A stretch of DNA of 64,000 nucleotides from a virus: the IMG/VR virus record IMGVR_UViG_3300021185_002720, positions 8,149 through 72,148 of that record, one strand, 5' to 3'. The notes under the pieces were generated by a model. It saw only the letters and a program-made list of their open reading frames with translations. It searched no databases and was not told where the DNA came from. Position 1 is the stretch's first letter. Each line of letters starts with the position of its first letter. The position numbers and the translations under genes are program-made. Shown here one piece after another: positions 2-39,339 of the stretch.

Positions 2-358
2 CTTGAAGAACTCGAAGAATATAGAGAAGCTTGCGAAAGGGGCGACATTGTGGAAGTTTTGGACGCTTTGTGCGACATTGCTTATGTTTCCCTTGGGAAC
101 GGTACTATGTTACACGGCCTTAAAGATAAGATATGGCCAGCATATCAAGAGGTACAAGCTTCTAATATGTCAAAAGCTTGTGAAACTGAAGAAGAAGCCA
201 TACAGAGTGTCAGCCAAAGAAGTAAGGAGCAAGGTGAGGCCTGTCATTTTGAGAAAGTTGCGGAGGGAAGGTATATTGTCTACCGATCCAGAGATATGAA
301 AGTAATGAAATCTATTAATTACTTTAGACCGGACCTTAAACAGTTCTTTAATGATTAA
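2..358 (+). CDS. MazG-like/PRA-PH family nucleoside-triphosphate pyrophosphohydrolase (5'-truncated by the window)
   Basis: Frame is open from base 2: LEELEEYREACERGDIVEVLDALCDIAYV, the EExxE...ExxDxxxD acidic helix pair of all-alpha NTP pyrophosphatases. Confidence 0.75.
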   Translation, partial: LEELEEYREACERGDIVEVLDALCDIAYVSLGNGTMLHGLKDKIWPAYQEVQASNMSKACETEEEAIQSVSQRSKEQGEACHFEKVAEGRYIVYRSRDMKVMKSINYFRPDLKQFFND

Positions 359-566
359 TTTAGAAAAACATAAAGTTACTATTGACGGCGAGGACTACTT
401 ACCGTATAATATAGTTAAAAAAGCATATTCTGAAATTTATGAATATGATAAGAATCAAAAGAAACTTGATCATGCATTAGAACTTATTGATAACTCAGTA
501 AGAACTATGTCAACACTTTTAAATACTACAAATATAGATGATAAAGATAGCACACGAGAGCCCTAA
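351..566 (+). CDS. hypothetical protein
   Basis: ORF overlapping both neighbours in a tight operon. Confidence 0.6.
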   Translation: MINLEKHKVTIDGEDYLPYNIVKKAYSEIYEYDKNQKKLDHALELIDNSVRTMSTLLNTTNIDDKDSTREP

Positions 567-1341
567 AGGTATTTTTGAAGAAGTACAAAGATTTACAGAT
601 TACGATTATGCATTAGTACACTTGTTTGAAGAAGATGAAGAATACTTACGTCAATTTAAACAAGCAGCGCTAAAAGGTAGAGAAATAATTTTAGATAACT
701 CTATTTTTGAATTAGAAGAGGCTTTCGATGCAGATAAATTTAACAAGTGGGTTAACGAACTTAAACCTACATGGTATATAGTTCCTGATGCTTTGGAAGA
801 TGCTACTAAAACTTGCGATCAAATGGAAGACTGGAATAATAAAGGTCTTGGTTATAAAGGTAGTGGTAAGATAGGAGTAGTTCAAGGTAAAACTTATGAT
901 GAAATAGTAGATTGTTATAACTATATGAATAAATCAGCAGATGTAGACATGATTGCTATCTCTTTTGATTATTCGTATTATACACATTCTGTTCCTCATG
1001 CTAACAAGTATGTTAGCTGGATGCTAGGACGTGTTAAGCTACTAGGAGACTTACTTAGAGACGGTGTAATAAATACTACAAAGCCTCATCACTTACTAGG
1101 TTGTAGTTTACCTCAAGAATTTAGTTTCTATAAGCATTCCGATTACGATTGGATATATTCACTTGATACTTCAAATCCTGTTGTACACGGTATTAAAGGT
1201 ATAACATATAGTTCAGATGGACTATGGTCTAAAGAAAGACAGAAGTTACATGAATTAATAAATTCAGATATTGACGAGCATCAGTTAGGAACTATTAGAA
1301 ATAATATTCAAAAATTTAAATGGTACACAAATGGGAACTAA
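538..1341 (+). CDS. dpdA: TGT-fold 7-deazaguanine transglycosylase-like protein (DpdA-like)
   Basis: TGT-like motifs IILDNS, IVPD, GVVQG, HHLLG, SLDTSNP; lies in the same operon as queF and a formyltransferase. Confidence 0.65.
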   Translation: MIKIAHESPKGIFEEVQRFTDYDYALVHLFEEDEEYLRQFKQAALKGREIILDNSIFELEEAFDADKFNKWVNELKPTWYIVPDALEDATKTCDQMEDWNNKGLGYKGSGKIGVVQGKTYDEIVDCYNYMNKSADVDMIAISFDYSYYTHSVPHANKYVSWMLGRVKLLGDLLRDGVINTTKPHHLLGCSLPQEFSFYKHSDYDWIYSLDTSNPVVHGIKGITYSSDGLWSKERQKLHELINSDIDEHQLGTIRNNIQKFKWYTNGN

Positions 1342-1867
1342 AGTATGGATAGCATTTTTTAGTCAGACAGGTGCTGAAATAGCTGATATAGCAGAATCAC
1401 TAGGTAGATGGCCAGATAGGATAATTACTAATGATAGACCTGAACATCTTAGAACTATTGATGAAAGAATAGAAAAGAAAGGTTACTTCACTATGAGTAA
1501 TAAACCCTCGTTAGATGAATATGAAGATACCTTAGTATACTTTCCAGAAGCATTGGTCACTTTACATGGATGGCTTAGAATAATGCCTCCTGAGATTTGT
1601 GAAAGATTTAATATAATTAATGGTCACCCAGGCCTTATAACCGAGTATCCAGAGCTTAAAGGTAAAGATCCTCAAATAAGAGCTTTTGAAGGAAAGTACC
1701 CAGTTGTTGGCACAGTATTACATAGAGTAGTAGCAGGTGTAGATGAAGGAAAAGTAATTTCTGAAGAGAGATTTAATAATTTTAATTTGGAGCTTAATGA
1801 TTTATTTCGTATCTTAAGAGATAGAGGGTTATATATGTGGTGTAACTTCCTAAAAACGGTTTTATGA
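1331..1867 (+). CDS. dpdN: PurN-like formyltransferase, probable preQ1 formyltransferase (DpdN-like)
   Basis: Formyltransferase motifs LHGWLRIMP, INGHPGL..YP.LKG, GTVLHRV..GVDEG; sits between the DpdA-like gene and queF. Confidence 0.65.
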   Translation: MGTKVWIAFFSQTGAEIADIAESLGRWPDRIITNDRPEHLRTIDERIEKKGYFTMSNKPSLDEYEDTLVYFPEALVTLHGWLRIMPPEICERFNIINGHPGLITEYPELKGKDPQIRAFEGKYPVVGTVLHRVVAGVDEGKVISEERFNNFNLELNDLFRILRDRGLYMWCNFLKTVL

Positions 1868-2385
1868 TAAAAAGAATAGCATTAGTAGGAGCAAGTAGTA
1901 CAGGTAAGACTACTGTTTATGAACTACTTAAAAATAAATTACCTAAGTATGAGTTTGTTAATGAATCTACTAGAACAGTAGGTAGTTACGGATTTCCTAT
2001 TAATGAAGAAGGAACCGATGCTACTCAATTAGCTATTAGTAGTTTTCATTTGGAAGCTTTACTTCAACCTTATAACTTAGTATTAGATAGATGTTATATG
2101 GATGTTTTAGTTTACTCTAGATTTATGAAAGGAGTAACTACATATACGAACGATTATATAGAAGATACTTGGAATAGAATAAAGAGCGAATATACTCATT
2201 ATGTTTACTTCCCTATTGAATTCGATTCAGTAGACGATGGAGTTAGAAGTGTAGATGAACAATGGAGAAAGGAAATAGATAGTGAGTTTAAAGCTGTTCT
2301 TGAAGGTGTACGTCAACCTTATTTGACGATAACTGGTTCCCCTATGCAAAGGGTAGAACAAATTTTAGATTTTATAAATGTTTAG
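1864..2385 (+). CDS. P-loop nucleoside/nucleotide kinase-like protein (AAA_28/NadR-like)
   Basis: Walker A GASSTGKTT, LDRC..D, DDGVR. Confidence 0.75.
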   Translation: MIKRIALVGASSTGKTTVYELLKNKLPKYEFVNESTRTVGSYGFPINEEGTDATQLAISSFHLEALLQPYNLVLDRCYMDVLVYSRFMKGVTTYTNDYIEDTWNRIKSEYTHYVYFPIEFDSVDDGVRSVDEQWRKEIDSEFKAVLEGVRQPYLTITGSPMQRVEQILDFINV

Positions 2386-2749
2386 ATACGGAGCAAAATT
2401 ATTAAGAGTAGTTGATGGTGACACAGCAGATGTTATGATCGACTTAGGATTCAGTACTTGGGTTAAAGCAAGGCTTAGATTCAAAGGTGTAGATACCTGG
2501 GAAAAGAGAACTAGAAATTTAGAAGAAAAAGCTAAAGGTATATTAGCTTCTGAATTTACAAAAAAACACTTAGAGCTAAATGATGGTAAGTTTATCATTC
2601 AGTCCTACGGTAAAGGTAAGTATGGAAGAGTACTTGCAGAGATTTTTATTGATCTCGATGGAGAAGAAACCTCTTTAAATAAACTATTAGTAGAAAACGG
2701 TCACGCTTATGTTTACGAAGGTGGCAAAAAACAATTATTTAAAGGATAA
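2378..2749 (+). CDS. thermonuclease (SNase) family protein
   Basis: RVVDGDT, RLRFKGVDT, KYGRVLA, LNKLLVENGHA. Confidence 0.85.
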   Translation: MFRYGAKLLRVVDGDTADVMIDLGFSTWVKARLRFKGVDTWEKRTRNLEEKAKGILASEFTKKHLELNDGKFIIQSYGKGKYGRVLAEIFIDLDGEETSLNKLLVENGHAYVYEGGKKQLFKG

Positions 2750-2753
2750 AAAT

Positions 2754-3665
2754 ATGGCAGAAGTTAAAAATTATCAAGAAGTAGTAGACATTGCGTCTAA
2801 ACACTTAGGAAAAGTAGGCGGTGATGGGTATAAAGATACCTACGCACCAGAGTTATTAGTTAAAGTACCTCGTTATTTGAATAGAGAAGGATACGGATTA
2901 ACTGATAAAGATTTTGTAGGAGTAGATACTTGGAACTGTTACGAAGTATCAGCTATTACTAAAAAAGGATTACCTGTAGCAGGTATGTTAAAAATTGTAT
3001 GTCCTTCAGATTCTGAATATCACGTAGAATCTAAGTCTATTAAGTTGTACCTAAATTCTTTTAATATGACTAGATTAGGAGAAACTTCTGTAGATTGTAT
3101 TTTAGAGATTGAAGAAAGAGTAAAAACTGATTTAGATAAGTTACTTGAAACTAATACTACTGTAAGCTTTTACACTGATTTAGACGACGGTAAAGAATTA
3201 TCTTTTGAAGGATATGAAGATTTAGGAGATATAGTAGATTTAGATCAAATAGATTTTACAGCTTTTCAGTCTGATGCTTCTCAATTACTTATAGAAGATA
3301 CCTCAGAAACCCCTAAAGAAGTAAAATTAAGATCTAACTTATTAAGATCTAACTGTAGAGTAACTAATCAACCAGATTGGGGTGATGTATTTATTAGAAT
3401 GAACGGTAAAAATTTACCTGCAGTAGATTCGGTAGCAAAATATATCGTATCTCATAGAACCGTTAGTCACTTTCATGAAGAGATTTGCGAAATGGTATTT
3501 AAGCATTTAATGGATGCATATCAACCTGATGATTTAATGGTATCATGCTTATATACTAGAAGAGGAGGATTAGATATAAATCCTATTAGAGCAACTCACT
3601 CAAGGTTCATTCCTGACTTCTTTACTGATACAGATTATAGAATTCAAAAAACATTAAGACAGTAA
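2754..3665 (+). CDS. queF: 7-cyano-7-deazaguanine (preQ0) reductase, bimodular QueF
   Basis: DTWNCYEVS, VESKSIKLYLNSF, RSNCRVTNQPDWG, FHEEICE, YTRRGGLDINP; start taken at ATG 2754. Confidence 0.92.
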   Translation: MAEVKNYQEVVDIASKHLGKVGGDGYKDTYAPELLVKVPRYLNREGYGLTDKDFVGVDTWNCYEVSAITKKGLPVAGMLKIVCPSDSEYHVESKSIKLYLNSFNMTRLGETSVDCILEIEERVKTDLDKLLETNTTVSFYTDLDDGKELSFEGYEDLGDIVDLDQIDFTAFQSDASQLLIEDTSETPKEVKLRSNLLRSNCRVTNQPDWGDVFIRMNGKNLPAVDSVAKYIVSHRTVSHFHEEICEMVFKHLMDAYQPDDLMVSCLYTRRGGLDINPIRATHSRFIPDFFTDTDYRIQKTLRQ

Positions 3666-3925
3666 TGGCTGAAATTATAATTGAAGAAGAAAAAGAGTTA
3701 ATTGCTAAAAGAAAAGCACCCGGTGATAATTGGATTCTGGAAAGAGATCAATCTACCGTTGTAGAGGGATTGGTTATGGCATTAACTATGTACATGAGAG
3801 CAACTAAATTCAAAGGTGAATACAGATTAGCTCCTTTAGACGGTAAACTTTATGCTATTAAAAAACATGAAATTGAAATCGAAGAAGAAGAACCAATGAA
3901 ATTTGACCTGTACGGGGAATACTAA
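3665..3925 (+). CDS. hypothetical protein
   Basis: Coupled ORF (TAATG junctions on both sides). Confidence 0.6.
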   Translation: MAEIIIEEEKELIAKRKAPGDNWILERDQSTVVEGLVMALTMYMRATKFKGEYRLAPLDGKLYAIKKHEIEIEEEEPMKFDLYGEY

Positions 3926-4563: not shown

Positions 4564-5040
4564 ATGGCGTATTACAATAATTACGAAGACGAGCGAAGAC
4601 AGAAAGCTTGGTTGGTCGATTTCATTCTAAAGATTACCAATAGAGAAAATGACGAAATACTTTCTAAAGTACTTTGGGATGTAGAAGTAGGAACATTAGC
4701 TGAAATGTTCTTTAAAAGAAAGTATAATTTACTTTCCAGCCTTACAGGTGATTATGAAGATTTTGCAAATGGTGATGATTCTAAAACGGGTACTGATCAA
4801 GATTATCAGGAGACCCATAATATGTTCCCATCTTCATATAGAATATTTTTTAGAAAATGTGGGAAAAAACACGGTGATATCAGAGGATTAGCTTTTAATA
4901 GAAGAGCAAACAGAATTGATGAATTTCATGTACCAAAAGGTTGTTTTCCTGATAATATTTCCATATCTTATAAGAAAGGAAGTAATGAAGTGTTTGGTAA
5001 ATATAAAGATAATTTAGTAAGAAGTTATATATGGGAATAG
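4564..5040 (+). CDS. hypothetical protein, possibly PD-(D/E)xK-like nuclease
   Basis: The ORF is clear; AE...DF.NGDDSK pattern only weakly suggests a nuclease. Confidence 0.5.
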   Translation: MAYYNNYEDERRQKAWLVDFILKITNRENDEILSKVLWDVEVGTLAEMFFKRKYNLLSSLTGDYEDFANGDDSKTGTDQDYQETHNMFPSSYRIFFRKCGKKHGDIRGLAFNRRANRIDEFHVPKGCFPDNISISYKKGSNEVFGKYKDNLVRSYIWE

Positions 5041-7418
5041 AAAAAAAGTATTATACAGTCCAAGACTCAGAGACTTTAAAGTTAATGTTTCAACACATAC
5101 AAGAGTCAGAAGTGATAGCAGTCGATACTGAAACGACTGGACTTAATCCTAGGAAAGATAAAATTATTGGATGGTCTATATCCGGTGATGAAGGTATAGG
5201 TTTTTACCTACCTACTTTAGTATTTGATTATGAGAAAGATGAGTTAGTTCTTCAAACTATTGATGATACTTCTACAGAGCTTTTATCAAGAAACCTACTT
5301 AAAGGGTTACTAGGAAAAAAACTTGTATTCCATAACGCTTCGTTTGACGTTCAGTTTATTAAAAATTACTTCGGTGTAGACTTACTTCCTGACGTATGGG
5401 TTGATACTGGACTACTTGTTCATACTGTTTATGAAGAAGGTGCTTTTGGTTTCGGTAATCCTTTTGGACTAAAGTCCATAGCGATAATGAACCAAAAGGC
5501 TCTAGGGCTTGATGTAGAAAAAGCTGCTAATGAAGAACAAGTTGAACTAAAAGAAAGTATTAAAAAGAATGGAGGATCCGTCACTAAAGAAAGCTTTCAG
5601 ATCTATAAAGCTGATCTGGATATTCTTAGTAAGTATGCTTCTGCTGATACCGACCTTACTCTACGTATATGTAATTTATACTTGGGAAAACTTAAAGAGG
5701 AAGGATTAGAGAAGTTTTTCTTTGAAGATGAGGTTATGCCTATCTACAGAGAAGTAACTGTGCCTATGGAAGCACAGGGAGTAGATTTAGATGTAGAGTT
5801 AATTGAAAGGATACATACTGAAATTACTGAAGATCAAGCTAAAAATAAAGAGATAGTAATGAAATCTTTACTTGACGTACCTGAGGTTAAAGCCTGGGTA
5901 GTAGATACTGCTACAGATGCTTATCCTCCGTCTCATAAAGGTAACTTTGCTCAACGACTAGTACAGCGTTATTCTCTTCCTTTACCTAAATCTGATAAAA
6001 CTGGTAAGTACTCTCTTACTCAGAAGAATATAGAAGAGTTAGAGGATTCTAAGATTAAGGAATTCTTACTTACAGGTGATTTAGAGTTAATAAACGAAGT
6101 AGAGAGAGCTAGGATATCTATGTCGCTATGGAAAGAGTCTAATGACGGTGAATACCTTAATATACAGTCTAAGAAACACTTAGGTGAGATTGTATTTAAG
6201 TACATGGGAATTAAACCTAAAGTATCAGGAGCTAATACTAAATCTGGTAGAGATAAATTTGATATGTCTATGGTAGAAGAGCTAGCAAAGACGTACCCTT
6301 GGGCTGAGAACTTACGTATATATAATAAGTTACTTAAGATAAAATCTACTTACGTAGACAGGTTTAGAGACCGTCAGGAAGACGGTAGATACTATTTCTA
6401 CTTCAAGCAAAATGGTACTGTATCTGGTCGATACGGTTCTGATGCTCAACAGTTACCGAAGCCCCTAGAAGAAGGAGAAGATGCTCCTGTAATCATGAAG
6501 TATGTGAATATAGTTAGAGAGTTCTTAGTTGCCGGACCTGGTAGAAAGGTTATTGATGCGGATTACGAATCTCTAGAACCTCACTGCTTTGCTAGCGTTA
6601 CAGGAGATAAAGCTCTTCAAGAGATCTTTAATAAAGGATGGGACTTCTATTCTACTGTAGCTATAAAAACTGAGAAGCTAAACGAGCAAAGAGATAGATT
6701 CCCTAACGGAGTCTCAGCTGATAAAAAAGCTGATAACTACCTTAAGAAGTTAGAACCTGTTGCTCGTAATAAAGCTAAAGCTTACTCATTAGGTATTGCA
6801 TACGGTATGGAAGCATATGCTCTTAAAATGACTTTAGATGTAGATCAAAAGACTGCTGAAGGACTTATTAAAGGTTACTTAGATGGTTTTCCTGAACTAG
6901 CAGCATGGAGAGAAAGATCAAGAGAAATGGTTAAGGCTTACGGTAAGATAGAAAACTATGTAGGACGTGTACGTCACTTACCTAAAGTTAAACGTATATA
7001 TGAGCAGGTTGGAGATCGTATGATGGATTGGAGATATAGAAAGCAACTAGAAACTCAGATACCTACTAAAACTAATCCAAAGACTGGTAAAATAATATCT
7101 CCTAGAGATCAAGTAACTCAAGCGTATAGAGATTATCGTAACGGACTTAATAACTGTCTTAACTTTCAATTGCAGTCATTAGCAGCTGCAGTAGTGAATA
7201 GAGCAGCTCTTGTTATTAACCGTAAAGCTAAAGAGTTAGGTATCGATGCTATATGCCAGGCACAGGTTCATGATCAATTGATAATTAACGTAGCTGAAAA
7301 AGATGCTGAAAGATTTGCTCCTTACGTTCAAGAGATAATGGAGAATACAACTAAACTACCTGGAGTAACTTTGAAAGCTCCACCAGAGATTGCTAATAAT
7401 TGGTCAGAAGGACATTAA
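5031..7418 (+). CDS. polA: family A DNA polymerase with 3'-5' exonuclease
   Basis: Exonuclease motifs DTETTG, HNASFD, YASAD; polymerase motifs TVSGR, DADYESLE, RNKAKAYSLGIAYG, VHDQL. Confidence 0.93.
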   Translation: MGIEKKYYTVQDSETLKLMFQHIQESEVIAVDTETTGLNPRKDKIIGWSISGDEGIGFYLPTLVFDYEKDELVLQTIDDTSTELLSRNLLKGLLGKKLVFHNASFDVQFIKNYFGVDLLPDVWVDTGLLVHTVYEEGAFGFGNPFGLKSIAIMNQKALGLDVEKAANEEQVELKESIKKNGGSVTKESFQIYKADLDILSKYASADTDLTLRICNLYLGKLKEEGLEKFFFEDEVMPIYREVTVPMEAQGVDLDVELIERIHTEITEDQAKNKEIVMKSLLDVPEVKAWVVDTATDAYPPSHKGNFAQRLVQRYSLPLPKSDKTGKYSLTQKNIEELEDSKIKEFLLTGDLELINEVERARISMSLWKESNDGEYLNIQSKKHLGEIVFKYMGIKPKVSGANTKSGRDKFDMSMVEELAKTYPWAENLRIYNKLLKIKSTYVDRFRDRQEDGRYYFYFKQNGTVSGRYGSDAQQLPKPLEEGEDAPVIMKYVNIVREFLVAGPGRKVIDADYESLEPHCFASVTGDKALQEIFNKGWDFYSTVAIKTEKLNEQRDRFPNGVSADKKADNYLKKLEPVARNKAKAYSLGIAYGMEAYALKMTLDVDQKTAEGLIKGYLDGFPELAAWRERSREMVKAYGKIENYVGRVRHLPKVKRIYEQVGDRMMDWRYRKQLETQIPTKTNPKTGKIISPRDQVTQAYRDYRNGLNNCLNFQLQSLAAAVVNRAALVINRKAKELGIDAICQAQVHDQLIINVAEKDAERFAPYVQEIMENTTKLPGVTLKAPPEIANNWSEGH

Positions 7419-8023: not shown

Positions 8024-8443
8024 ATGAGTACATTAAGAAATGTAATATATGAACGTAATCCGTTCGACATCTTAGTCAGGAACTTCCTGCAAACAGCTAA
8101 CAGGTACCAACCCTTAGCAGAATCCAAATTACCTCACCCAGTAGATATTTACGAAAGAGACAACGGTCTAGGCCTCGATATAGCTTGTACCGGAATTTCT
8201 AAAGAAGATATCCAAATCCTCGTTGAGGGTAATATAATCAGAGTAAATTACGATAAACCAAAAGAAGAAGACTTAGGCGAATATATCCATAGGGGTATTG
8301 CTAAAAGATCATTCAACTTAGGTTGGAAAATAGATAGTAAGTTTGATTTAGGCAAAGCTTCGGCTGAGTTTATAAACGGACTATTGCAAGTTACTATACC
8401 TTTTGCTAAAGGTTCAGAGCCAAAAACTTTGAAAATTAGCTAA
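8024..8443 (+). CDS. small heat shock protein Hsp20
   Basis: PVDIYE, YIHRGIAKRSF, AEFINGLLQVTIP. Confidence 0.9.
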   Translation: MSTLRNVIYERNPFDILVRNFLQTANRYQPLAESKLPHPVDIYERDNGLGLDIACTGISKEDIQILVEGNIIRVNYDKPKEEDLGEYIHRGIAKRSFNLGWKIDSKFDLGKASAEFINGLLQVTIPFAKGSEPKTLKIS

Positions 8444-8507
8444 ATAAACCAGCTCTGGGTTTGTTTTTCAAATAAAAGTTCTTATATTAATATAAATAAA
8501 AAGATTT

Positions 8508-8816
8508 ATGTCAAAACAGTTATTACCAACAAATGATAGAATACTCCTTAAGCCGATCGACGAAGGAGAACAAACTTACGGAAATATTGTCATACCGGAT
8601 ATGGGTAAAGAAAAACCTGAAATGGGTGAAGTATTGGCCATTGGTCCAGGAAGACAATCCGAATTAGATCCACAAAAAGTTATTAGCGTTAGATCCTGTA
8701 AAGTAGGTGACGTAGTTTTAGTACCTAAAATTGGTACATTACGTATTGACTTTGAAGGAGATGAATACTACATCGCACAAGATAGAGAAATTTTAGCAGT
8801 TATAAAAGAAGCATAA
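8508..8816 (+). CDS. groES: co-chaperonin GroES
   Basis: PTNDRILLKP, GNIVIPD..KEKP..GEVLAIGPG, VGDVVL, REILAV. Confidence 0.93.
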   Translation: MSKQLLPTNDRILLKPIDEGEQTYGNIVIPDMGKEKPEMGEVLAIGPGRQSELDPQKVISVRSCKVGDVVLVPKIGTLRIDFEGDEYYIAQDREILAVIKEA

Positions 8817-8817
8817 T

Positions 8818-10473
8818 ATGAGTAAAGATTTAGAATTTAATCACAAAGCTAGAGTAGGACTTTCAGAAGGTATCGAAAAATTAGCAAAGACTGTTGTATG
8901 TACTTTAGGTCCAGCAGGTAGGAATGTAATTATTGAACAAACAACAGGTAATCCAATTTCTACTAAAGACGGAGTTACAGTTGCAAAGTCTATTGAATTA
9001 AAAGATCCATTAGAGAATATTGGAGCACAATTAGTTAAACAAGCATCTATTAAGACTGCAGAAGAAGCTGGTGATGGTACTACTACCTCTACACTACTAG
9101 CTAGAGAGATGTTTCAAAAAGGTTTAGGAACTATTGGAGATCATACTGCAGTACAAGTTAAGAAAGGAATAGAACTCGCTACAGAAGACGTAGTTGAGTA
9201 TTTAGAATCAGTAAGTAAAGATATAACGGACGAAGGACAGCTTAAACAGGTCGCTACTATCTCTGCCAATAACGATAATGAAGTTGGCGAATTGATTTCT
9301 ACTGCTATGGAAAAAGTAGGACAGGATGGAGTTGTGTCAATCGAAGAATCAAAGACCGGAGAAACGTATTTAGAAACAGTTGAAGGAATGCAATTCAACA
9401 GAGGTTATAAGTCTCCATACTTCGTTACAGATAACAGCACCATGACTGCTGTTCTTCGTGATCCGTTTGTATTAATTACTGATAAAAGGTTGAACCAGGT
9501 GAAGGAGTTACTTCCTGTATTAGAAGCTGTTTCTCAACAAAATAAGTCTCTGTTAGTAATTGCAGACGATATCGATGGAGAAGCATTATCTACTATGGTA
9601 GTTAATAAGATGAGAGGTATTCTTCCTGTAGCTGCAGTTAAGGCTCCTGATTTTGGAGACAGAAAGAAAGCAACGTTAGAAGATATAGCAATCATAACAG
9701 GAGGTCAAGTAATCTCATCAGATAAAGGAATGAGATTGGATAAGTTTGATCCTGCTTGGTTAGGTAAAGCTGTTAAAGCTACTGTTTCAAAAGATACCTG
9801 TACTATTATTGATGCTAAAGGAGATGAAGAAAAGATTCAAGCTAGAGTAGATGAGATCAGAACTCAGATAGACGAATCTAATTCACCTTTTGAGAAAGAA
9901 AATCTTCAAGACCGATTAGGTAAATTGATCGGCGGAGTTGCAGTGGTACACGTTGGTGGTCATACTGAAATAGAAATGAAAGAGAAGAAAGATAGAGTAG
10001 ATGATGCTCTACATGCCACCAAGGCAGCTCTAGAAGAAGGTGTTTTACCTGGAGGAGGAGTAGCATTACTTAATGCTGCTAAAAAGATTAGAGATAAGAA
10101 AGATAAAGGTAGCTACAAAGATCTTACTGCTAGTGAGCAAGTAGGAATACAGATACTTTTAGAATCAATAGAAAGACCATTCTATCAGATTCTTTTTAAC
10201 GCTGGAATTGCTGAACCAGAAATCGATGAAATAAGAAAAGCGATTGAAAAGAAAACTAAAGATAAATGGTATGGTTATAACTCAAGAGTTGAAGACTTTG
10301 CTGATATGTTTAAAGAAGGTATTATCGATCCAACTAAAGTTACTAGGTTAGCATTAGAGAATGCCGTATCAGTAGCTGGAACGATGTTAATCACTGAAGC
10401 AGTAGTATCGTTAGATAAAACTGAAGAAACAAAAGCACCATTAGACGCAGCTCAACAAATGTTACTAGGATAA
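8818..10473 (+). CDS. groEL: chaperonin GroEL
   Basis: [45 protein letters not shown]. Confidence 0.97.
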
Positions 10474-11222
10474 TGAAATATAAATTTATTACAGATTGGT
10501 TACGTAATTACAGTAAGGAAGCAAACGAAAAGACTTTTGTTGTTGGAGTAAGCGGCGGGATTGACTCCGCCGTTACCTCTACCTTATGTGCTCAAACAGG
10601 AGTACAGACATATGTAGTTTCACTTCCAATTGAGCAGAATAAAGAAGAACTTAGCAGAGCTGAAGCTCATATTGAGTGGCTCTGTAATAAGTACGATAAC
10701 GTAGTTCCTTTACAGTTTAATTTAAATGAATTATTCTGGGCATTTAAAAATGTATTTGAAAAAGAAGATAAGTTAGCATTAGCTAATTCAAGATCTAGAC
10801 TTAGGATGACTACATTGTATCATGCTGCTGCTATGGTTAATGGATTAGTAGTTGGTACAGGTAATAAGGTTGAAGACTTTGGAATAGGTTTCTATACAAA
10901 ATATGGAGACGGAGGAGTTGATATTAGCCCAATAGCTGACCTAATGAAATCAGAAGTAAAAGAAGCAGCATGTGAATTAGGACTTCTTTTAGATATCATA
11001 GAAGCAAAACCTACAGATGGTCTATGGGACGACGGAAGAACAGATGAAGATCAAATCGGATGTACTTACGATGAATTAGAATGGGCAATGACTTTTGGAG
11101 GAGATAAAAGAAAGTTAACTAAAAGAAAAAAAGAAGTATTAAAAATATTCTACGGTTTCCAACATAACAATAGGCATAAAATGGTTCCAATACCTATATG
11201 TCCAAATACTAAAGATGCATAA
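10473..11222 (+). CDS. nadE: NH3-dependent NAD+ synthetase
   Basis: GVSGGIDSAV, N.RSRLRM, GTGNKVE, GFYTKYGDGG, PTDGLW..GRTDE. Confidence 0.93.
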   Translation: MKYKFITDWLRNYSKEANEKTFVVGVSGGIDSAVTSTLCAQTGVQTYVVSLPIEQNKEELSRAEAHIEWLCNKYDNVVPLQFNLNELFWAFKNVFEKEDKLALANSRSRLRMTTLYHAAAMVNGLVVGTGNKVEDFGIGFYTKYGDGGVDISPIADLMKSEVKEAACELGLLLDIIEAKPTDGLWDDGRTDEDQIGCTYDELEWAMTFGGDKRKLTKRKKEVLKIFYGFQHNNRHKMVPIPICPNTKDA

Positions 11223-11700
11223 CCGAAAAGAAATTTTAACTTTAATGTTTGTGCTGTTAGCAGTATTTGTTAGATTGGCTCCACACCCTCCTAATTTTAC
11301 ACCTATAACAGCCTTAGCTTTATTTGGAGCTACAACATTTAGTAACAGAGTGTTAGGAACACTACTACCATTAATTGCATTAGCAATATCAGATCTTTAT
11401 TTAGGTTTCTATTCTATATCAATTTGGGTCTACAGTTCTTTCTTAGCCATCAGTTTACTAGGTCACTACTGGAAGACGATTAAGACTAAAAATATACTAA
11501 TGAGCAGTTTACTATTTTTCATTGTTACTAACTTTGGAGTATGGTTAACTGGTTATCCTAAAACTATAGAAGGGTTTGTACTTTGTTATACTTTAGCAAT
11601 TCCTTTCTTCATTAACGCAATAGCAGGAGATTTATTTTTCAGCTATATCTTAAAGTATAGTTATTCATTCACTAAATATAAATTAATTAAACAATTATGA
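11215..11700 (+). CDS. DUF6580-like membrane protein (putative ECF-type vitamin transporter S component)
   Basis: RLAPHPPNFTPITALALFG, FFIVTNFGVW, CY..AIPFF; several transmembrane segments. Confidence 0.65.
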   Translation: MHNRKEILTLMFVLLAVFVRLAPHPPNFTPITALALFGATTFSNRVLGTLLPLIALAISDLYLGFYSISIWVYSSFLAISLLGHYWKTIKTKNILMSSLLFFIVTNFGVWLTGYPKTIEGFVLCYTLAIPFFINAIAGDLFFSYILKYSYSFTKYKLIKQL

Positions 11701-12217: not shown

Positions 12218-12503
12218 AAATTATATAGGCTATTATTTTATTGCAGCAGCAATTTTGCTTATAGTTGCAGGAGAATATTTTACAGGAGTCTTAATTGGGT
12301 TTGTAACCGTGTTAAAGGTACCGCCATTTGATTGGGTTGGAAGAGCAATGGACTGGTCAGCAGGAATTGGGCATAGATATGGATTGAAGCTTAAAGCCTG
12401 GAAAGAAAAGCAATCAAAACCAGTTAGGATACTGGTAACAATAATTGCTGCAATCCTGGTCTTTTTAATATGGTGGAATATGCCTGAATGTGAGTTATGT
12501 TAA
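12201..12503 (+). CDS. membrane protein
   Basis: Two hydrophobic segments. Confidence 0.6.
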   Translation: MIEHFRNYIGYYFIAAAILLIVAGEYFTGVLIGFVTVLKVPPFDWVGRAMDWSAGIGHRYGLKLKAWKEKQSKPVRILVTIIAAILVFLIWWNMPECELC

Positions 12504-12979
12504 AAGATTATATTAGAGAAGTGCCCGACTTTCCAAAAAAAGGGATTAACTATAAAGACATACAACCTTTACTTGCAGACGATAATGCATTCTTCGATGC
12601 TCTATACGACTTAGGAGAATTAGTTGATATTGAAAAAGTAGATTACTTTGTAGGGATCGAGTCGCGTGGGTTTATATTCGCGTCCGCGCTTGCCGCTATG
12701 AATATGAAAGGCTTTAAAATGATCCGTAAAGCAGGAAAATTACCTCCTGCTAATTTAGTATCTATAGAATATGGATTAGAGTACGGTAGAGATACCATAG
12801 AAATAGAAAAAGGTTTTGGAAATGTTGTAATTGTTGATGATGTATTCGCGACCGGAGGAACAATGACAGCAGCCGAAATGATCTGCGAACTTGCAGGGTA
12901 CCAAGTAGTAGATAGTATTTGCTTACTTGATATTGGAATCAACAAAAAACATACTACAAAATGCCTAATATCTTATTAG
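12497..12979 (+). CDS. apt: adenine phosphoribosyltransferase
   Basis: PDFPKKGI, GIESRGF, RKAGKLP, EYGLEYG, IVDDVFATGGT. Confidence 0.92.
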   Translation: MLKDYIREVPDFPKKGINYKDIQPLLADDNAFFDALYDLGELVDIEKVDYFVGIESRGFIFASALAAMNMKGFKMIRKAGKLPPANLVSIEYGLEYGRDTIEIEKGFGNVVIVDDVFATGGTMTAAEMICELAGYQVVDSICLLDIGINKKHTTKCLISY

Positions 12980-13494
12980 TATCAGCTACAAAGCTTGAAC
13001 ATCACGATACAGAAATAAATGGAGTGCCTATACATATAATTGGTATAGGAAAAGTTGAAGCAGCTCTCAATACCTATAAACTTATACAGAAGTATAAACC
13101 TGACCATGTAGTGAATTTTGGTTCATGTGGCAGTCTTTGTTCTGCTAGAATAGGAGAAGTTATTGAAGTTGGAGAAGTATACGATGACTTTTATGGATGT
13201 GTAGTACCAGAACATTCAAGTATAAAAGTAAGTAATACTAAAGTTAAATTATTTACTACAGATATATTTTATGACTCTTCAGCAACCTATAGTAATTCGT
13301 ATGTTGAAAATCTCCGTAAATGTGATTTAGTAGATATGGAGGGATATTCTATAGCAAAAGTTTGTTTATCTGAAAATATTTCCGTATCTTTATTTAAATG
13401 GATTAGCGACTCTGGAGACAGTACAGATTGGAGAGCTAATGCTTCAATAGGATATAATAATTTTAAAAAGGTTTTCAATGAGCGATTCAGTTAA
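12961..13494 (+). CDS. MTA/SAH nucleosidase-like protein (PNP_UDP_1 family)
   Basis: GIGKVEAA, VNFGSCG, VDMEGYSIA, KWISD. Confidence 0.8.
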   Translation: MPNILLVSATKLEHHDTEINGVPIHIIGIGKVEAALNTYKLIQKYKPDHVVNFGSCGSLCSARIGEVIEVGEVYDDFYGCVVPEHSSIKVSNTKVKLFTTDIFYDSSATYSNSYVENLRKCDLVDMEGYSIAKVCLSENISVSLFKWISDSGDSTDWRANASIGYNNFKKVFNERFS

Positions 13495-13714: not shown

Positions 13715-14225
13715 TAGATATGAAATGCAGATTCATAAGAGTGAATTTAAGCCTCTGCGAATCGATAATTCATTTTCTATAAAAGTAATAGATAAATTTG
13801 AAGACGGAGAAGAACATTTCAAACAGTTTATTGAGTCAATAGATATTAACTTAAGTGATTGGGATGAAAGGCCAACTTTAAATGATGTTAAAGATAGATT
13901 AAACGGAGTATCAAAATGTACTTTATTTTTTCATGAAGATATAAAAGAGGCTATCGGATGGGGGTGGTTCTCTAGTGTGTTTACATATGACTGGGTAAAT
14001 GAAGTGCATCCTCTACCTACTGATAATTCAACATACTGGGGAGGAACATATATACGTAAAGAATTAGACATACCAAAAACTACAGGCTTACAAATGTATA
14101 ACCACGGGTTTGAATTATTTCTTAGCTTTAGTGATTATATGTACGGCTATATGGATAGCTGGAATAAAGCACCTATCAAGATTTGTCATAAGATAGGCGG
14201 CCGTGAATTTAAATTTATACAATGA
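13707..14225 (+). CDS. GNAT-like hypothetical protein
   Basis: IGWGW, YIRKE, MDSWNKAPIKI..KIG resembles the GNAT C-terminal motif. Confidence 0.45.
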   Translation: MSDRYEMQIHKSEFKPLRIDNSFSIKVIDKFEDGEEHFKQFIESIDINLSDWDERPTLNDVKDRLNGVSKCTLFFHEDIKEAIGWGWFSSVFTYDWVNEVHPLPTDNSTYWGGTYIRKELDIPKTTGLQMYNHGFELFLSFSDYMYGYMDSWNKAPIKICHKIGGREFKFIQ

Positions 14226-14731
14226 TATTAGAAATAGAACAAGACATAGTAACATTACTAGAAGAGTTTCTCGATATAGTTCCTAAGGCTGGTGAAAAGC
14301 AAATGGATAGATTAGAGAAGATAGCTCCCGGTTTAGTTCATTTCAATAGATTTACAGAAGACTCTAATGAAACAGATATTGACTTCTATTCAGTAGATAA
14401 TGAAAACTTTAATACAGCATTAGCCGCAGCTTTAAAAATAGACCTATACAACCCAATTACAATCCATAGAGTAAATTATAACGTAGGAGGTAAAGCATTA
14501 GAACATAAAGATGAAAATTCTCTTCATACTTACGTAATAATGTTGGACGATAATTTTGAAGGAGGAGATTTTTACCTTAGAGGTGAACTTACAGACTTTA
14601 GACGAAGAGGCCAAGTTGCATACTATATGGGTATGGATGCTGCTCATAGTGTATCGGAAGTAACAAAAGGCTCAAGAAAAGTACTTGTAGTATGGTACAG
14701 AGGAACAAAACCAGAATTTAAAACATTATGA
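14222..14731 (+). CDS. 2OG-Fe(II) oxygenase
   Basis: HKD, FEGGDF, H.V.EVTKGSRKVLVVW. Confidence 0.85.
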   Translation: MILEIEQDIVTLLEEFLDIVPKAGEKQMDRLEKIAPGLVHFNRFTEDSNETDIDFYSVDNENFNTALAAALKIDLYNPITIHRVNYNVGGKALEHKDENSLHTYVIMLDDNFEGGDFYLRGELTDFRRRGQVAYYMGMDAAHSVSEVTKGSRKVLVVWYRGTKPEFKTL

Positions 14732-27550: not shown

Positions 27551-27769
27551 ATGGCACAATACAGAGTTATTAAGATGCTTCGAAAGACCTTTGAAGCACA
27601 GAAAGAAAAGGCACTTATGACATTCGATCTTCTTACAGAAAGCCCAGCAGGGATAGGAGATCATTCTACTACAGATTTTTATAACAACGCAGAAGAAGCA
27701 GCTAGAGCATTAGCTGAAGCTGATGACGTATTACAAACCCTTGAAAGATATTACAGCAACAATGAGTGA
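27551..27769 (+). CDS. conserved small phage protein
   Basis: PAGIGDHS helical-hairpin motif. Confidence 0.6.
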   Translation: MAQYRVIKMLRKTFEAQKEKALMTFDLLTESPAGIGDHSTTDFYNNAEEAARALAEADDVLQTLERYYSNNE

Positions 27770-28133
27770 TAGAGAAATAATGAATGCTAAGAATCCTCCT
27801 TCAGCAAGAGAAATTCTAAAAGAAGAGTACCCTACAATCTATAACGGCTATCAGTCTATTATCGATGAACAGTTTGAACTATTTGCCAGAAAGCATCTAG
27901 ACTATGGTATGCATAATGTAAGTGCAGGCACCAATCTAGATAACTCCGACGAAGTAGAATTTGCAATGACTGGTTTATGGTATAGACTTTCAGATAAGAT
28001 TAACAGATGGAAGAATATGATCATTTCAGGTCGTAAAGCTCAAAACGAAACACTAATAGATACTTTTCAAGACGTTACTAACTACGGTATCATAGCTCAG
28101 TTAGTTAAGAGAGGTATGTGGAAAAACGATTAA
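27762..28133 (+). CDS. nucleotide modification-associated domain 1 (DUF1599-like) protein
   Basis: FARKHLDYG, RLSDKINR, ETLIDTFQDVTNYGII. Confidence 0.75.
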   Translation: MSDREIMNAKNPPSAREILKEEYPTIYNGYQSIIDEQFELFARKHLDYGMHNVSAGTNLDNSDEVEFAMTGLWYRLSDKINRWKNMIISGRKAQNETLIDTFQDVTNYGIIAQLVKRGMWKND

Positions 28134-29265: not shown

Positions 29266-29270
29266 GGTTG

Positions 29271-30707
29271 ATGGAAGGTTATATTAAAAAAGAAGATAGG
29301 AAAAAGATACTCCTACTATGTGATGATATTCGAATGCATTCTGGAATAGCTACAATGGCTAGAGAGTTTGTAGTCAATAATGGTCATCGATACAATTGGT
29401 TTAACGTAGGTGCTGCAGTCAATCATGCAGATAAAGGTAAGGTATTAGATCTATCAGCCGATATTAATAAACAATTAAATATAGAAGATGCAGATGTAAG
29501 GATACTCCCTTACAATGGATACGGAGATGCTCAGTTAGTTAGAGACATTATGAAGAGAGAAAAGCCAGATGCTATTTTTATCTTTACTGATCCAAGATAT
29601 TGGACTTGGCTATTCGAAATTGAAAGAGAAGTAAGAAGTCAAGTTCCAATCATCTGGTTAAATATTTGGGATGAATTTCCTTCACCTAAATACAATGAAC
29701 ATTTTTACGATTCAGTAGATGCTTTGTTAAGTATCTCTAAACAAACTAAACTGATAAACGAATTAGTATTAGGGAATAAAGCTGATGATAAGGTATTAAA
29801 GTATATTCCTCATGGAATAGATAACGATATATTTAGACCTATAGAAGATCCTGAGAATAATAAAGAGTTCCAAGGATTTAAAAAAGGAGTATTTAACAAT
29901 AAAGATTATGAATTCGTCGCTTTCTTTAACTCTAGAAACATTCAACGTAAAAGACCAGCAGATGTTATGCTAGCTTTTAAGCTCTTCTGTGATAGTATAG
30001 GTAAAGAGAAAGCTAAGAAATGTGCTTTAGTAATGCATACTGCTCCTGTAGACCAACACGGAACTGATCTAAATGCAGTTAAGAATGCAATATGTGATCC
30101 TGAATATGTAAACGTATTTTTCTCTACTACTAAAATTAATCCTATTCAAATGAACGGGATGTATAATTTAGCAGATGTAACTATGTTGATATCGTCTAAC
30201 GAAGGATGGGGATTATCATTAACTGAGTCTATGTTAGCAGGTACAATGACAATCTCAAACGTAACAGGAGGAATGCAAGACCAAAGTAGATTTGTAGATG
30301 AAAACGGAGAATGGTTTACTCCATCAGCTGATATACCTTCTAACCATAGAGGTACATATAAAGAACATGGTGAATGGAACCTACCGGTATTCCCATCTAA
30401 TATTTCTTTAGCAGGTTCAGTACCTACTCCTTATATTTTTGACGATAGATGTTCACCAGAAGAAGTAGCTCAAGCGTTAGAGGTAATCTACGACATGAGT
30501 CCTGAGGAAAGAAATGAAAGAGGTTTAAAAGGAAGAGAATGGGCTATGTCTGAAGAAGCAGGACTTACAGCTAAAATAATGAGTGATAGAATAGCAGAAG
30601 CTATTGATGAAACTTTAGAGAGCTTTGTTCCAAGACCTAGATACGATCTTTTAAAAGTAGAAGATAAACCAAGTAAATTAATTGAACACAAATTAACAGG
30701 TTATTAA
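29271..30707 (+). CDS. GT4 glycosyltransferase
   Basis: SGIATMARE, IPHGID, RNIQRKR, NEGWGLSLTESM. Confidence 0.85.
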   Translation: MEGYIKKEDRKKILLLCDDIRMHSGIATMAREFVVNNGHRYNWFNVGAAVNHADKGKVLDLSADINKQLNIEDADVRILPYNGYGDAQLVRDIMKREKPDAIFIFTDPRYWTWLFEIEREVRSQVPIIWLNIWDEFPSPKYNEHFYDSVDALLSISKQTKLINELVLGNKADDKVLKYIPHGIDNDIFRPIEDPENNKEFQGFKKGVFNNKDYEFVAFFNSRNIQRKRPADVMLAFKLFCDSIGKEKAKKCALVMHTAPVDQHGTDLNAVKNAICDPEYVNVFFSTTKINPIQMNGMYNLADVTMLISSNEGWGLSLTESMLAGTMTISNVTGGMQDQSRFVDENGEWFTPSADIPSNHRGTYKEHGEWNLPVFPSNISLAGSVPTPYIFDDRCSPEEVAQALEVIYDMSPEERNERGLKGREWAMSEEAGLTAKIMSDRIAEAIDETLESFVPRPRYDLLKVEDKPSKLIEHKLTGY

Positions 30708-30708
30708 T

Positions 30709-31989
30709 ATGAGTAAATCAACATTAGTTATTAGCTGCCCTATTGATACTTATTCAGGATATGGAGCAAGATCAAGAGACCTAGTAAAAGCTATCATAGC
30801 AACAGGTAAATATAACGTAAACATAATTGGACAACGATGGGGTAATACTAGATTCGGTTACTTAGATGATCATAAAGAAACTGATCTCAAAAGCCTAATC
30901 ATACCTGGACTACAGACTCAACCTGATATATGGATACAAGTTACTGTACCTAACGAATTTCAAAAGGTAGGTAAATATAATATCGGTGTTACAGCTGGAA
31001 TAGAGACTGACCAATGTCACGGTAGTTGGATAGAGGGTTGTAATAGAATGGACCTTATACTAACCTCATCAGAGCACTCTAAAAAGGTATTCGTTAATAC
31101 TATAGTAGATGCTATGGATCAAAAGACCGGTCAGAAAATTAAAGAAATTAAACTAGAAAAACCAGTCGAAGTATTATTTGAAGGGGTAGATACAACTAAG
31201 TACTTTCAAACTAAAACATCAGCTAAGACAGAGTTTACTTTAGACATCAACACTATACCAGAATCATTTTGCTACCTTAGTGTAGGACATTGGATGCAAG
31301 GAGATTTTGGACACGATAGAAAGAATATAGGGTATACTGTTAAGACATTTTTAGAGACTTTTAAAACTAAGAAAAATCCTCCTGCTTTAATACTTAAATG
31401 TAGTACAGCTTCTACATCTATTTTAGATAGAGAAAGGATTTTAGATAAGATAGATGCTATTAGAAAGACCATTAAAGGTGGTAGGTTAGCTAATATCTAT
31501 TTGCTTCATGGAGAGATAACAGATGGAGAAATGAATGATCTATATAACCATCCTAAAGTTAAAGTAATGGTTAGTCATACTAAAGGAGAAGGATATGGAA
31601 GACCCCTTGCTGAGTTTGCTGTTACAGGAAAGCCTATCATTGCATCAGGATGGTCCGGTCATACAGACTTTTTAGATAAAGATCTTTCTATACTACTCGG
31701 TGGTACAATAGATAGAGTTCATCCATCGTCTGTTCTCAAAGATATGATCATTACAGAAGCTAGTTGGTTTACACCTAGTGATCCAGATACTTCTAAAGCA
31801 TATAAGAAAACATTTAAACATTACAAGGACTGTATACCTGGAGCTAGAAAACAGAGAAGAGTTATATTAGACAACTTTACATACGAAGATATGTGCAAGA
31901 GAGTTGATAACATATTAGAGAGTAATATTCCAGACTTTCCTAAGCAAATACAATTAACATTACCTAAATTAGATTTACCAAAATTATAA
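30709..31989 (+). CDS. GT4 glycosyltransferase
   Basis: SGYGARSR, DRKN, KGEGYGRPLAE, WSGHTDF. Confidence 0.85.
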   Translation: MSKSTLVISCPIDTYSGYGARSRDLVKAIIATGKYNVNIIGQRWGNTRFGYLDDHKETDLKSLIIPGLQTQPDIWIQVTVPNEFQKVGKYNIGVTAGIETDQCHGSWIEGCNRMDLILTSSEHSKKVFVNTIVDAMDQKTGQKIKEIKLEKPVEVLFEGVDTTKYFQTKTSAKTEFTLDINTIPESFCYLSVGHWMQGDFGHDRKNIGYTVKTFLETFKTKKNPPALILKCSTASTSILDRERILDKIDAIRKTIKGGRLANIYLLHGEITDGEMNDLYNHPKVKVMVSHTKGEGYGRPLAEFAVTGKPIIASGWSGHTDFLDKDLSILLGGTIDRVHPSSVLKDMIITEASWFTPSDPDTSKAYKKTFKHYKDCIPGARKQRRVILDNFTYEDMCKRVDNILESNIPDFPKQIQLTLPKLDLPKL

Positions 31990-31992
31990 GTT

Positions 31993-33262: not shown

Positions 33263-33263
33263 C

Positions 33264-33422: not shown

Positions 33423-33436
33423 ACCTATTTATAAAT

Positions 33437-34024: not shown

Positions 34025-34027
34025 TTA

Positions 34028-34498: not shown

Positions 34499-34523
34499 CA
34501 AGTTATTTTTCTTATATTTAATT

Positions 34524-39338: not shown

Positions 39339-39339
39339 A

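Follow-up and report, generated by a model that had tools for sequence, protein, structure and literature searches.

Genes of a formyl-preQ1-type guanine-replacement module in an uncultured marine phage, and a possible nucleotide-level role for its DpdA3 transglycosylase

The stretch of viral DNA analysed here (the window, 64,000 nucleotides) comprises bases 8149-72148 of a 72,148-base linear IMG/VR record, IMGVR_UViG_3300021185_002720, for which CheckV gives a completeness of 44%. The contig has a GC content of about 0.33, and nearly every open reading frame (ORF) lies on the plus strand. The first genes of the window, at positions 2-3665, form a 7-deazaguanine DNA modification cluster in which all genes are on the plus strand and adjoining ends overlap or abut, as one operon: the 3' part of a MazG-like pyrophosphohydrolase gene, a small conserved ORF, a DpdA3-type guanine transglycosylase, a DpdN-type formyltransferase, a small P-loop kinase, a nuclease of the SNase (staphylococcal nuclease) fold, and QueF, the reductase that converts preQ0 to preQ1. 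ORF identities were assigned by profile searches against Pfam, PHROGs and NCBIfam; a first-pass annotation, made from the letters alone, had already named six of these genes, and the ORF calls and family searches agree with it on their identity, position, strand and overlap. The locus is a new, uncultured marine member of the system known from phage immuto, of which it represents the distal half of the cluster; we assign it so because the immuto gene order matches and because all G of immuto DNA has been measured as formylated dPreQ1 (fdPreQ1; Cui et al. 2023). No promoter-like or terminator-like signal in the cluster rose above shuffled controls, and an Rfam search of the cluster found no preQ1 riboswitch or other element, only tRNA genes.

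The transglycosylase gene (538-1341, plus strand) encodes a protein of 267 amino acids that had no match in Pfam or NCBIfam and that matched a PHROG family of unknown function, phrog_19058, at 1e-51. In order to model it, the window protein was aligned with representatives of its clusters at 50% identity (67 sequences); the resulting AlphaFold2 (AF2) model has (beta/alpha)8 topology, with a predicted local distance difference test score (pLDDT) of 97.7 and a predicted template modelling score (pTM) of 0.93. When the PDB was searched with this model by Foldseek, the top 50 matches were all tRNA-guanine transglycosylases (TGTs), at E about 1e-7. VIA-align superposed it on the archaeal TGT 1iq8_A with Z 18.5 and a root-mean-square deviation (rmsd) of 2.9 A over 234 of the 267 residues, and on the Z. 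mobilis TGT with preQ1 with Z 18.0; the TGT-like barrel proposed in the first-pass annotation is therefore what the model adopts. At the level of sequence, the protein is 74.5% identical to the DpdA of immuto and about 43% identical to the homologue from CP220-type Campylobacter phages, and its profile aligns with CGPG_00065 of phage phiST by hhalign at 99.0% (E 6e-18); the same profile failed to recognise the DpdA1 of phage 9g (hhalign 1.6%). Since it combines the TGT fold with homology to all three DpdA3 phages of Cui et al. 2023, the product of 538-1341 is, by model and by homology, a TGT-fold DpdA3.

Three aspartates, D53, D84 and D210, are invariant in the 67 sequences, and their spacing of 31/126 residues compares with 35/126 for the essential Asp95, Asp130 and Asp256 reported for the bacterial DpdA 7ui4 (PMC10164549). 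That protein is also the best PDB sequence match of the DpdA3 profile, a weak one (E 0.099) in which only the region of D210 was aligned, with that of the bacterial nucleophile (HLLG...SxDTSNP against HLLG...SIDSTTP); a narrower DpdA3 alignment gave no match to PDB sequences. Because the sequence match reaches E 0.099 at best, the link from DpdA3 to solved structures is carried by the fold. The TGT-type barrel is shared with bacterial DpdA/DpdB and with 9g DpdA1, and the aspartate pattern around HLLG...D(S/T)(S/T) appears to be so too. In contrast, the Ins8/zinc DNA-binding platform of bacterial DpdA is not found in DpdA3, in which only 57 residues follow the predicted nucleophile aspartate and the zinc subdomain is missing; a CxCxxC zinc motif occurs in 0 of the 67 sequences, and their median pI is 5.54. 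Size, zinc motif and charge were considered as a sign that DpdA3 cannot bind DNA and were rejected, as the DNA-acting 9g DpdA1 is similar on all counts (317 amino acids, pI 5.64, no CxCxxC). The DpdA3 family is large, with 4608 proteins at E <= 0.001 in a 90% collection and 1475 clusters at 50% identity. Natural fusions of DpdA3 were found with DpdN (two, P0162 and P0191), QueF (three), DUF3310 (one) and a NUMOD3-bearing tail (one); the QueF and DUF3310 fusion proteins, P0271-P0273 and P0267, are relatives from outside the window.

Overlapping the end of the DpdA3 gene is the formyltransferase gene (1331-1867, plus strand, 178 amino acids), which scores 31.7 bits against PF00551, Formyl_trans_N (cut-off 26.1). 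Of 66 sequences, at least 95% retain N97, H99 and D138, which we take, by PurN numbering, to be the Asn-His-Asp catalytic residues of PurN-type formyltransferases. The protein is 52% identical to the DpdN region of immuto and fits the published group 1, a short form (178 amino acids) co-encoded with DpdA and FolE-QueF, as described in PMC10516641. The earlier suggestion of a PurN-like DpdN is upheld by the family match and by this identity, and on sequence grounds the protein is a DpdN orthologue. At the distal end of the cluster, QueF (2709-3665, plus strand) contains both domains of the two-domain form, PF14819 (98.5 bits) and PF14489 (62 bits), and scores 239 bits against TIGR03138, under the equivalog cut-off of 293. 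C216 and the motif E107-S-K-S-x-K-L-Y are conserved in 61 sequences, and the protein is 63% identical to the QueF of immuto. No family match extends to before residue 20, so that translation probably begins at the second ATG, at 2754, immediately downstream of the stop codon of the SNase gene.

The kinase gene lies between these two (1864-2385, plus strand). Its product scores 68.3 bits against PF13521, AAA_28 (cut-off 27), over positions 1-164 of 164, and was modelled from a 47-sequence alignment (AF2 pLDDT 90.2). The model matches deoxynucleoside kinases, the ribosylnicotinamide kinase domain of NadR and thymidylate kinases: by VIA-align, the NadR kinase domain gave Z 18.1 with an rmsd of 2.5 A over 167 residues, and deoxycytidine kinase (dCK), thymidylate kinase (TMPK) and deoxyguanosine kinase (dGK) gave Z 16.9, 16.6 and 16.4, which, at a distance of about 2 Z units, is effectively a tie with NadR. 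These matches (Z 16-18) span 160-173 of the 173 residues, and G9, G14, K15, T17, D75, R76, R128 and R163 are invariant in the 47 sequences. Judged from the model, the protein is a small-molecule nucleoside/nucleotide kinase, of a structure that fits a nucleoside and a monophosphate substrate alike. It is 65.5% identical to the immuto homologue and 27% identical (E 2e-16) to gp057 of CP220. A dTMP kinase was tried as a candidate and rejected, at 24.4 bits against TIGR00041 (cut-off 83.25) and 19.7 bits against PF02223 (cut-off 27); as the dTMP kinase equivalog cut-off is not reached, the label 'thymidylate kinase' carried by the immuto and CP220 homologues is unsupported.

At the other end of the cluster the edge of the window cuts the gene of a MazG/PRA-PH-type all-alpha nucleoside triphosphate (NTP) pyrophosphohydrolase, whose 3' part occupies 2-358 on the plus strand. 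The whole gene (G000:C1:7979-8506, 175 amino acids) starts 170 nucleotides before the window, which retains the C-terminal 118 amino acids; the fragment scores 23.4 bits and the whole protein 41.4 bits against PF01503 (cut-off 21.3), and phrog_671, 'nucleotide pyrophosphohydrolase', is matched at 1.5e-23. The acidic metal-binding motif EExxE...ExxD (E59, E60, E63, E75, D78 and D82) is conserved in 42 family members. The protein is 78% identical to the immuto homologue, and had no match among PDB sequences at E <= 1.

The first-pass annotation had placed folE, queD, queE and queC upstream of the window by expectation, and all four were found in the 8.1 kb that precede it on the same contig. In order, this region encodes QueC, tRNA-Ala, a carbamoyltransferase, QueD, QueE, a ferredoxin, a phosphoribosyltransferase (PRTase), FolE, a cupin and MazG; the QueC gene is cut by the contig end, and the tRNA-Ala(tgc) (L002:577-651) lies between QueC and the next ORF. 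DpdA3 is thus co-encoded on one contig with the genes of 7-deazaguanine synthesis, QueC, QueD, QueE and FolE upstream and QueF downstream. The PRTase has a conserved phosphoribosyl pyrophosphate (PRPP)-binding motif, and its nearest PDB sequences are purine and xanthine-guanine PRTases. The 4Fe-4S ferredoxin (G000:C1:5869-6177), directly 3' of the radical-SAM (S-adenosylmethionine) enzyme QueE and present in 18 of the 117 sequences clustered in the survey described below, is the likely electron donor for QueE. The NodU/CmcH-type carbamoyltransferase between QueC and QueD (G000:C1:1314-2972) matches PF02543 and PF16861 at E 1e-60 or better and has homologues in 11 of the 85 surveyed DpdA3 loci; an amine such as that of preQ1 might be its target for carbamoylation, or else the gene may be an unrelated auxiliary one.

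The cultured phage immuto provides the closest comparison. Its DNA contains 345,000 fdPreQ1 per 10^6 nucleotides with no dG peak, and the PF00551 protein beside its cluster was named DpdN (PMC10516641). The immuto genes run QueD, QueE, PRTase, FolE, DUF4494, NTP pyrophosphohydrolase, small ORF, DpdA, small ORF, formyltransferase, 'thymidylate kinase', QueF, two ORFs and PolA; from QueD through PolA (here a family A DNA polymerase at 5031-7418, identified by Pfam, PHROG and NCBIfam), the present contig shares both these genes and their order, in the same low-GC marine setting of Bacteroidota phages. The two differ in that an SNase separates kinase and QueF on this contig only, none being encoded anywhere in the immuto genome, and in that the carbamoyltransferase, the ferredoxin after QueE and the cupin before MazG are not in the immuto stretch. 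They also differ in what supports them, as the chemistry of immuto is measured whereas the present phage is uncultured and known from its genes. Gene set, order and identities all agree with the 7-deazaguanine locus of formyl-preQ1 type proposed at first, and we regard it as very probable that the locus is a G-replacement module of the fdPreQ1 type. The system itself was published in 2023, and this locus adds an uncultured marine example.

The central question for such systems is what allows replacement to be 100% in DpdA3 phages when with other DpdA enzymes it does not exceed 30%. DpdA3 is the only DpdA subfamily for which complete replacement is reported, as measured in immuto, CP220 and phiST, and modification by bacterial DpdA and by DpdA1 is partial (PMC10516641). 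In CP220 (dADG), the DpdA3 gene gp056 is located between gp055, a fusion of HD-phosphohydrolase and AAA_33, and gp057, an AAA_28 kinase. In phiST (dDG), the order is FolE, MazG-like, DpdL, CGPG_00066 and DpdA3, where CGPG_00066 is a P-loop protein of the AAA_18 family (29.8 bits, cut-off 29.4) that aligns with the window kinase only at the P-loop. Both phages differ from the present one in having no DpdN or QueF in the DpdA3 neighbourhood and in their final bases. In all three cultured full-replacement phages, DpdA3 is therefore directly flanked by a small kinase-like gene, with a gene of dNTP-hydrolase type (HD or MazG) nearby; because the three final bases differ (fdPreQ1, dADG and dDG), the kinase presumably acts on what they have in common, the sugar or its phosphate, rather than on the C7 substituent.

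To place these genes in a wider context, DpdA3 loci from viral contigs were assembled with the three cultured-phage stretches and the present contig into a set of 117 sequences, in which 2267 ORFs were called and clustered; L001 and L002, fetched for other purposes, were excluded, and L037 was dropped as it had no complete DpdA3 ORF. Collapsing identical DpdA3 proteins left 85 loci, the present contig and its near-identical twin L004 both being retained, of which 61 had 3.5 kb of sequence downstream of DpdA3, 72 had 3.5 kb upstream and 50 had both flanks. Within 3.5 kb downstream, DpdN was found in 54 of the 61 loci, the kinase in 53 and QueF in 58; a DUF3310 protein was present in 5 of the 61, and either kinase or DUF3310 in 58. 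Within 3.5 kb upstream, FolE was found in 56 of the 72 loci, MazG in 39 and the PRTase in 36, with a second PRTase type in 4 more. The order DpdA3-DpdN-kinase-QueF is preserved in loci whose genes are otherwise rearranged, and in one contig derived from a metagenome-assembled genome (MAG) MazG and DUF3310 precede DpdA3. A crude test independent of kinase families, which looked within 3.5 kb for a protein of 130-260 amino acids whose first 40 residues contain a Walker A motif, was positive in 64 of 85 DpdA3 loci versus 0 of 17 loci of DpdA1 (phage 9g type); on this test the DpdA1 loci differ in having no kinase (0/17), and phage 9g itself has neither kinase nor MazG beside its DpdA1. Two conserved ORFs of the cluster, for which no Pfam or PHROG family was found, whose function is unassigned and which are missing from the first-pass annotation, also recur: the one at 351-566 (plus strand, 71 amino acids), which overlaps both MazG and DpdA3, belongs to a cluster with members in 56 of the 117 sequences and occurs upstream of DpdA3, at a distance of up to 3.5 kb, in 29 of 72 loci, and the one after QueF at 3665-3925 (plus strand, 86 amino acids) has members in 52 of the 117 and is 56% identical to its immuto counterpart.

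We propose the following model for these genes. FolE, QueD, QueE (with the ferredoxin), QueC and QueF would make the free base preQ1 from GTP; DpdA3 would exchange guanine for the deazaguanine base, DpdN would formylate the aminomethyl group, and the virion DNA would carry fdPreQ1 in place of G. The assignments of the base pathway, the transglycosylase and the formyltransferase, made by homology to a characterised phage, appear well founded. That the exchange is made on the free deoxyguanosine nucleoside or nucleotide, and not on finished DNA, we infer from the company that DpdA3 keeps, and here the odds seem to us even. On such a route, the MazG-like enzyme would hydrolyse dGTP to dGMP, removing the competitor dGTP and supplying the deoxyribose-phosphate donor; DpdA3 would swap the base on free dG, dGMP or dGTP; the adjacent kinase would phosphorylate the exchanged product; the host nucleoside diphosphate (NDP) kinase and the neighbouring PolA would complete incorporation; and the purine-type PRTase would return the released guanine to GMP/GTP, feeding FolE.

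In the hydroxymethylcytosine pathway of phage T4, the dCTPase gp56, the dCMP hydroxymethylase gp42 and the deoxynucleoside monophosphate (dNMP) kinase gp1 act at the nucleotide level. If exchange before replication holds for DpdA3, the logic would be alike, in that a canonical dNTP is hydrolysed, a mononucleotide is modified, a phage kinase re-phosphorylates it and replacement is full; the differences would be that a transglycosylase swaps the whole base here, in the place of an enzyme of thymidylate-synthase type, and that no component is homologous. Such a route would, if it is right, be the first pre-replicative DNA base replacement based on a transglycosylase.

Several observations point to exchange at the nucleotide level. 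The kinase is linked to DpdA3 in 53 of 61 loci; a kinase and a hydrolase stand beside DpdA3 in three cultured phages with different bases; small-molecule nucleoside/nucleotide kinases are the nearest structural matches of the kinase model; and the Walker A test differs between the two subfamilies (64/85 versus 0/17). The resemblance of the cluster PRTase to purine and xanthine-guanine PRTases also fits, and so does the ADG nucleoside seen in the cytoplasm of CP220-infected cells (PMC10516641). The first-pass annotation had already suggested a pre-replicative route on the strength of the kinase and MazG-like genes; the linkage of kinase and dNTP hydrolase to DpdA3 across distant phages and the fold of the kinase now make it plausible. 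To the full proposal, in which DpdA3 would be a nucleoside/nucleotide transglycosylase, complete replacement in phages of the immuto, CP220 and phiST types would be pre-replicative, and the operon nuclease of the immuto clade would feed host deoxynucleotides into the cycle, we assign a probability of roughly 0.45.

The most serious alternative is the published view, in which DpdA3 exchanges G for preQ1 in replicated DNA and DpdN formylates dPreQ1 in DNA, so that kinase, MazG and PRTase are merely supportive, for instance by turning released guanine back into GTP for use by FolE or by sanitising the nucleotide pool. We consider this account a realistic possibility, if a somewhat doubtful one. 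Every characterised relative of DpdA3 acts on a polynucleotide, bacterial DpdA on DNA (by Asp95/Asp256 chemistry) and TGT on tRNA, and DpdA3 appears to have the same aspartates and HLLG...D(S/T)(S/T) motif as the DNA-acting enzymes. We found no sequence feature that separates DpdA3 from the DNA-acting DpdA1, which is likewise small, acidic and free of the zinc motif. The authors of PMC10516641 conclude that the modification is post-replicative, arguing that insertion after replication is indicated by the fact that all deazaguanine phages have a DpdA. Furthermore, the fusions of DpdA3 join it to enzymes acting on the base or its modification (QueF and DpdN) and not to a kinase: no DpdA3-kinase fusion was detected by the kinase hidden Markov model (HMM) among 150 representatives, or among 6 homologues of at least 469 amino acids.

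The gene-neighbourhood evidence for nucleotide-level exchange is itself open to objection on several points. In 8 of the 61 loci no kinase homologue lies within 3.5 kb downstream, a DUF3310 protein substituting in 5 of them; among MAG-derived contigs, of which 7 of 9 were examined, an AAA_28 kinase follows DpdA3 in 3 of 7. The DpdA1 contrast set is small, its 17 loci coming mostly from close relatives of 9g. MazG homologues are generic among phages, and the kinase was rejected as a marker specific to deazaguanine phages, since Streptomyces phages account for 89 of the 118 phage records in which a homologue occurs; in Jay2Jay, the only one of these inspected, no que genes lie within 7 kb of the kinase homologue. 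The PRTase and kinase could equally serve to recycle guanine to GTP after post-replicative exchange. All of these points weigh against exchange before replication.

Post-replicative exchange, for its part, does not explain the company of a nucleoside/nucleotide-fold kinase and a dNTP hydrolase that DpdA3 keeps in three unrelated phage groups, whose final bases differ, and that is absent from the 17 DpdA1 loci, and a dGTP-hydrolysing MazG would oppose replication with dGTP. Complete replacement is found only with DpdA3, and tests of DpdA3 alone in the E. coli DNA-modification model of the authors were unsuccessful (PMC10516641), an outcome that fits an enzyme acting on nucleotides before replication. 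No paper found in the literature searches, the candidate PMC10653934 included, appeared to connect DpdA3 with a kinase or with exchange at the nucleotide level. The linkage of kinase and dNTP hydrolase across differing final bases makes the choice between a nucleotide and a DNA substrate directly testable.

An improbable alternative is a ribonucleotide route, in which the PRTase would couple preQ1 or formyl-preQ1 to PRPP, the kinase would make the diphosphate, a ribonucleotide reductase would convert this to the deoxy form and the polymerase would incorporate it, with DpdA3 confined to proofreading or repair of residual G. The PRTase upstream of DpdA3 in 36 of 72 loci, together with the 4 of the second type and the conserved PRPP motif, favours this route, as does phiST, which encodes both a PRTase and a ribonucleotide reductase. 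However, DpdA3, which is universally conserved, would have no main role on this route; a PRTase is missing near DpdA3 in roughly half of the loci and in CP220, and no ribonucleotide reductase was seen in the 72-kb contig, which is 44% complete. Less probable still, kinase, MazG, PRTase and SNase would be passengers belonging to ordinary nucleotide metabolism of an early region, for example NAD salvage near NadE, with no tie to modification; the NadR domain as best structural match of the kinase (Z 18.1), an NAD synthase in the window at 10473-11222, and kinase and MazG homologues in phages without que genes agree with this, but the order DpdA3-DpdN-kinase-QueF survives rearrangement, the CP220 kinase adjoins DpdA3 with no NadE nearby, and the NadR match is effectively level with those to dCK, dGK and TMPK, all of them being within about 2 Z units of one another.

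The remaining gene of the cluster (2378-2749, plus strand) encodes a minimal SNase-fold nuclease of 123 amino acids, without a signal peptide, that matches PF00565 at 43 bits (cut-off 21) and phrog_452 at 3e-38. Its DGDT, DTWE and GR motifs are conserved in 16 sequences (D13, D15, R34, D39, T40, E42 and R84), and the conserved Asp/Arg/Glu set presumably corresponds, by the numbering of S. aureus nuclease, to the catalytic residues of that enzyme. Among the 50 loci with both flanks, SNase was found in 13 and Endonuclease_NS, an unrelated nuclease that occupies the slot between kinase and QueF or lies near the PRTase (L006, L011, L015, L018, L052, L054, L058-L061, L064 and others), in 16; none had both, for which the hypergeometric probability is 0.0026, uncorrected for relatedness. 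On a DpdA3 tree of these 50 loci, the immuto-like clade of 31 rows divides into 15 with Endonuclease_NS, 13 with SNase and 3 with none, and the more distant loci have neither nuclease nearby. The nuclease labels change 9 to 11 times on this tree, of which well-supported branches force at least 4 and 5. Immuto, one of the three rows with none, encodes an Endonuclease_NS at another place in its genome. That the two nucleases alternate in this way suggests that the immuto-like module favours a nuclease as an accessory. The two kinds may not share a compartment, as a hydrophobic, signal-peptide-like N-terminus is present only in the Endonuclease_NS proteins, in all of them (20 unique sequences, judged by eye).

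The first-pass annotation had counted the SNase as part of the modification system and proposed that it could degrade unmodified host DNA. As a core component it was rejected: it is optional (13 of 50 loci), and a search of the whole genomes of immuto, CP220 and phiST found no SNase. Benzonase is, we assume, a nuclease of the Serratia type. In the liquid chromatography-mass spectrometry (LC-MS) protocol for immuto, fdPreQ1 DNA was digested with Benzonase and DNase I (PMC10516641), which argues against an intrinsic resistance to Serratia-type nucleases. Degradation of unmodified host DNA by the SNase is a possible function, with its optional presence, the signal-like N-terminus seen in the alternative nuclease only, the lack of either nuclease near the more distant DpdA3 genes and the digestibility by Benzonase and DNase I counting against a core or host-selective role. 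A DUF1599 (nucleotide-modification-associated domain 1) protein at 27762, which had been suggested as a possible member of the same system, does not appear to belong to it; the ORF (27723-28133) scores 23.5 bits against PF07659 (cut-off 25), is separated from the cluster by 24 kb, neighbours a PD-(D/E)XK nuclease, and has no homologue or PF07659 match in immuto, CP220 or phiST.

Distant relatives of DpdA3 (35-43% identity) on two of the MAG-derived contigs, L146:5001-8640 and L148:4983-8332, adjoin a family B DNA polymerase, which in L148 carries an intein; no que genes lie within 3 kb in either. On the present contig, the DNA polymerase gene is followed at window positions 8024-11700 by genes for Hsp20, GroES, GroEL, NAD synthase (NadE) and a DUF6580 protein, and GroES and GroEL hold the equivalent position in immuto. 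At 12497-13494, an adenine PRTase gene (NF002636, 158.8 bits, cut-off 125) overlaps a gene resembling methylthioadenosine/S-adenosylhomocysteine (MTA/SAH) nucleosidases, below cut-offs; as a pair, these would clear and salvage the adenosine-type by-products of SAM enzymes. A large sugar/nonulosonic-acid cluster at 29268-44530 encodes NeuB, a CMP-sugar-type cytidylyltransferase, an APS-kinase-like protein and a TylF methyltransferase, and additionally a pyruvyl transferase and several GT1/GT2 glycosyltransferases. Late in the window is a tRNA-Arg(tct) at 55962-56036. Three genes for 2-oxoglutarate (2OG)-Fe(II) oxygenases are dispersed through the window, at 14222-14731, 54287-54805 and 63470-63937, the last of which, on the minus strand, is one of just two minus-strand ORFs.

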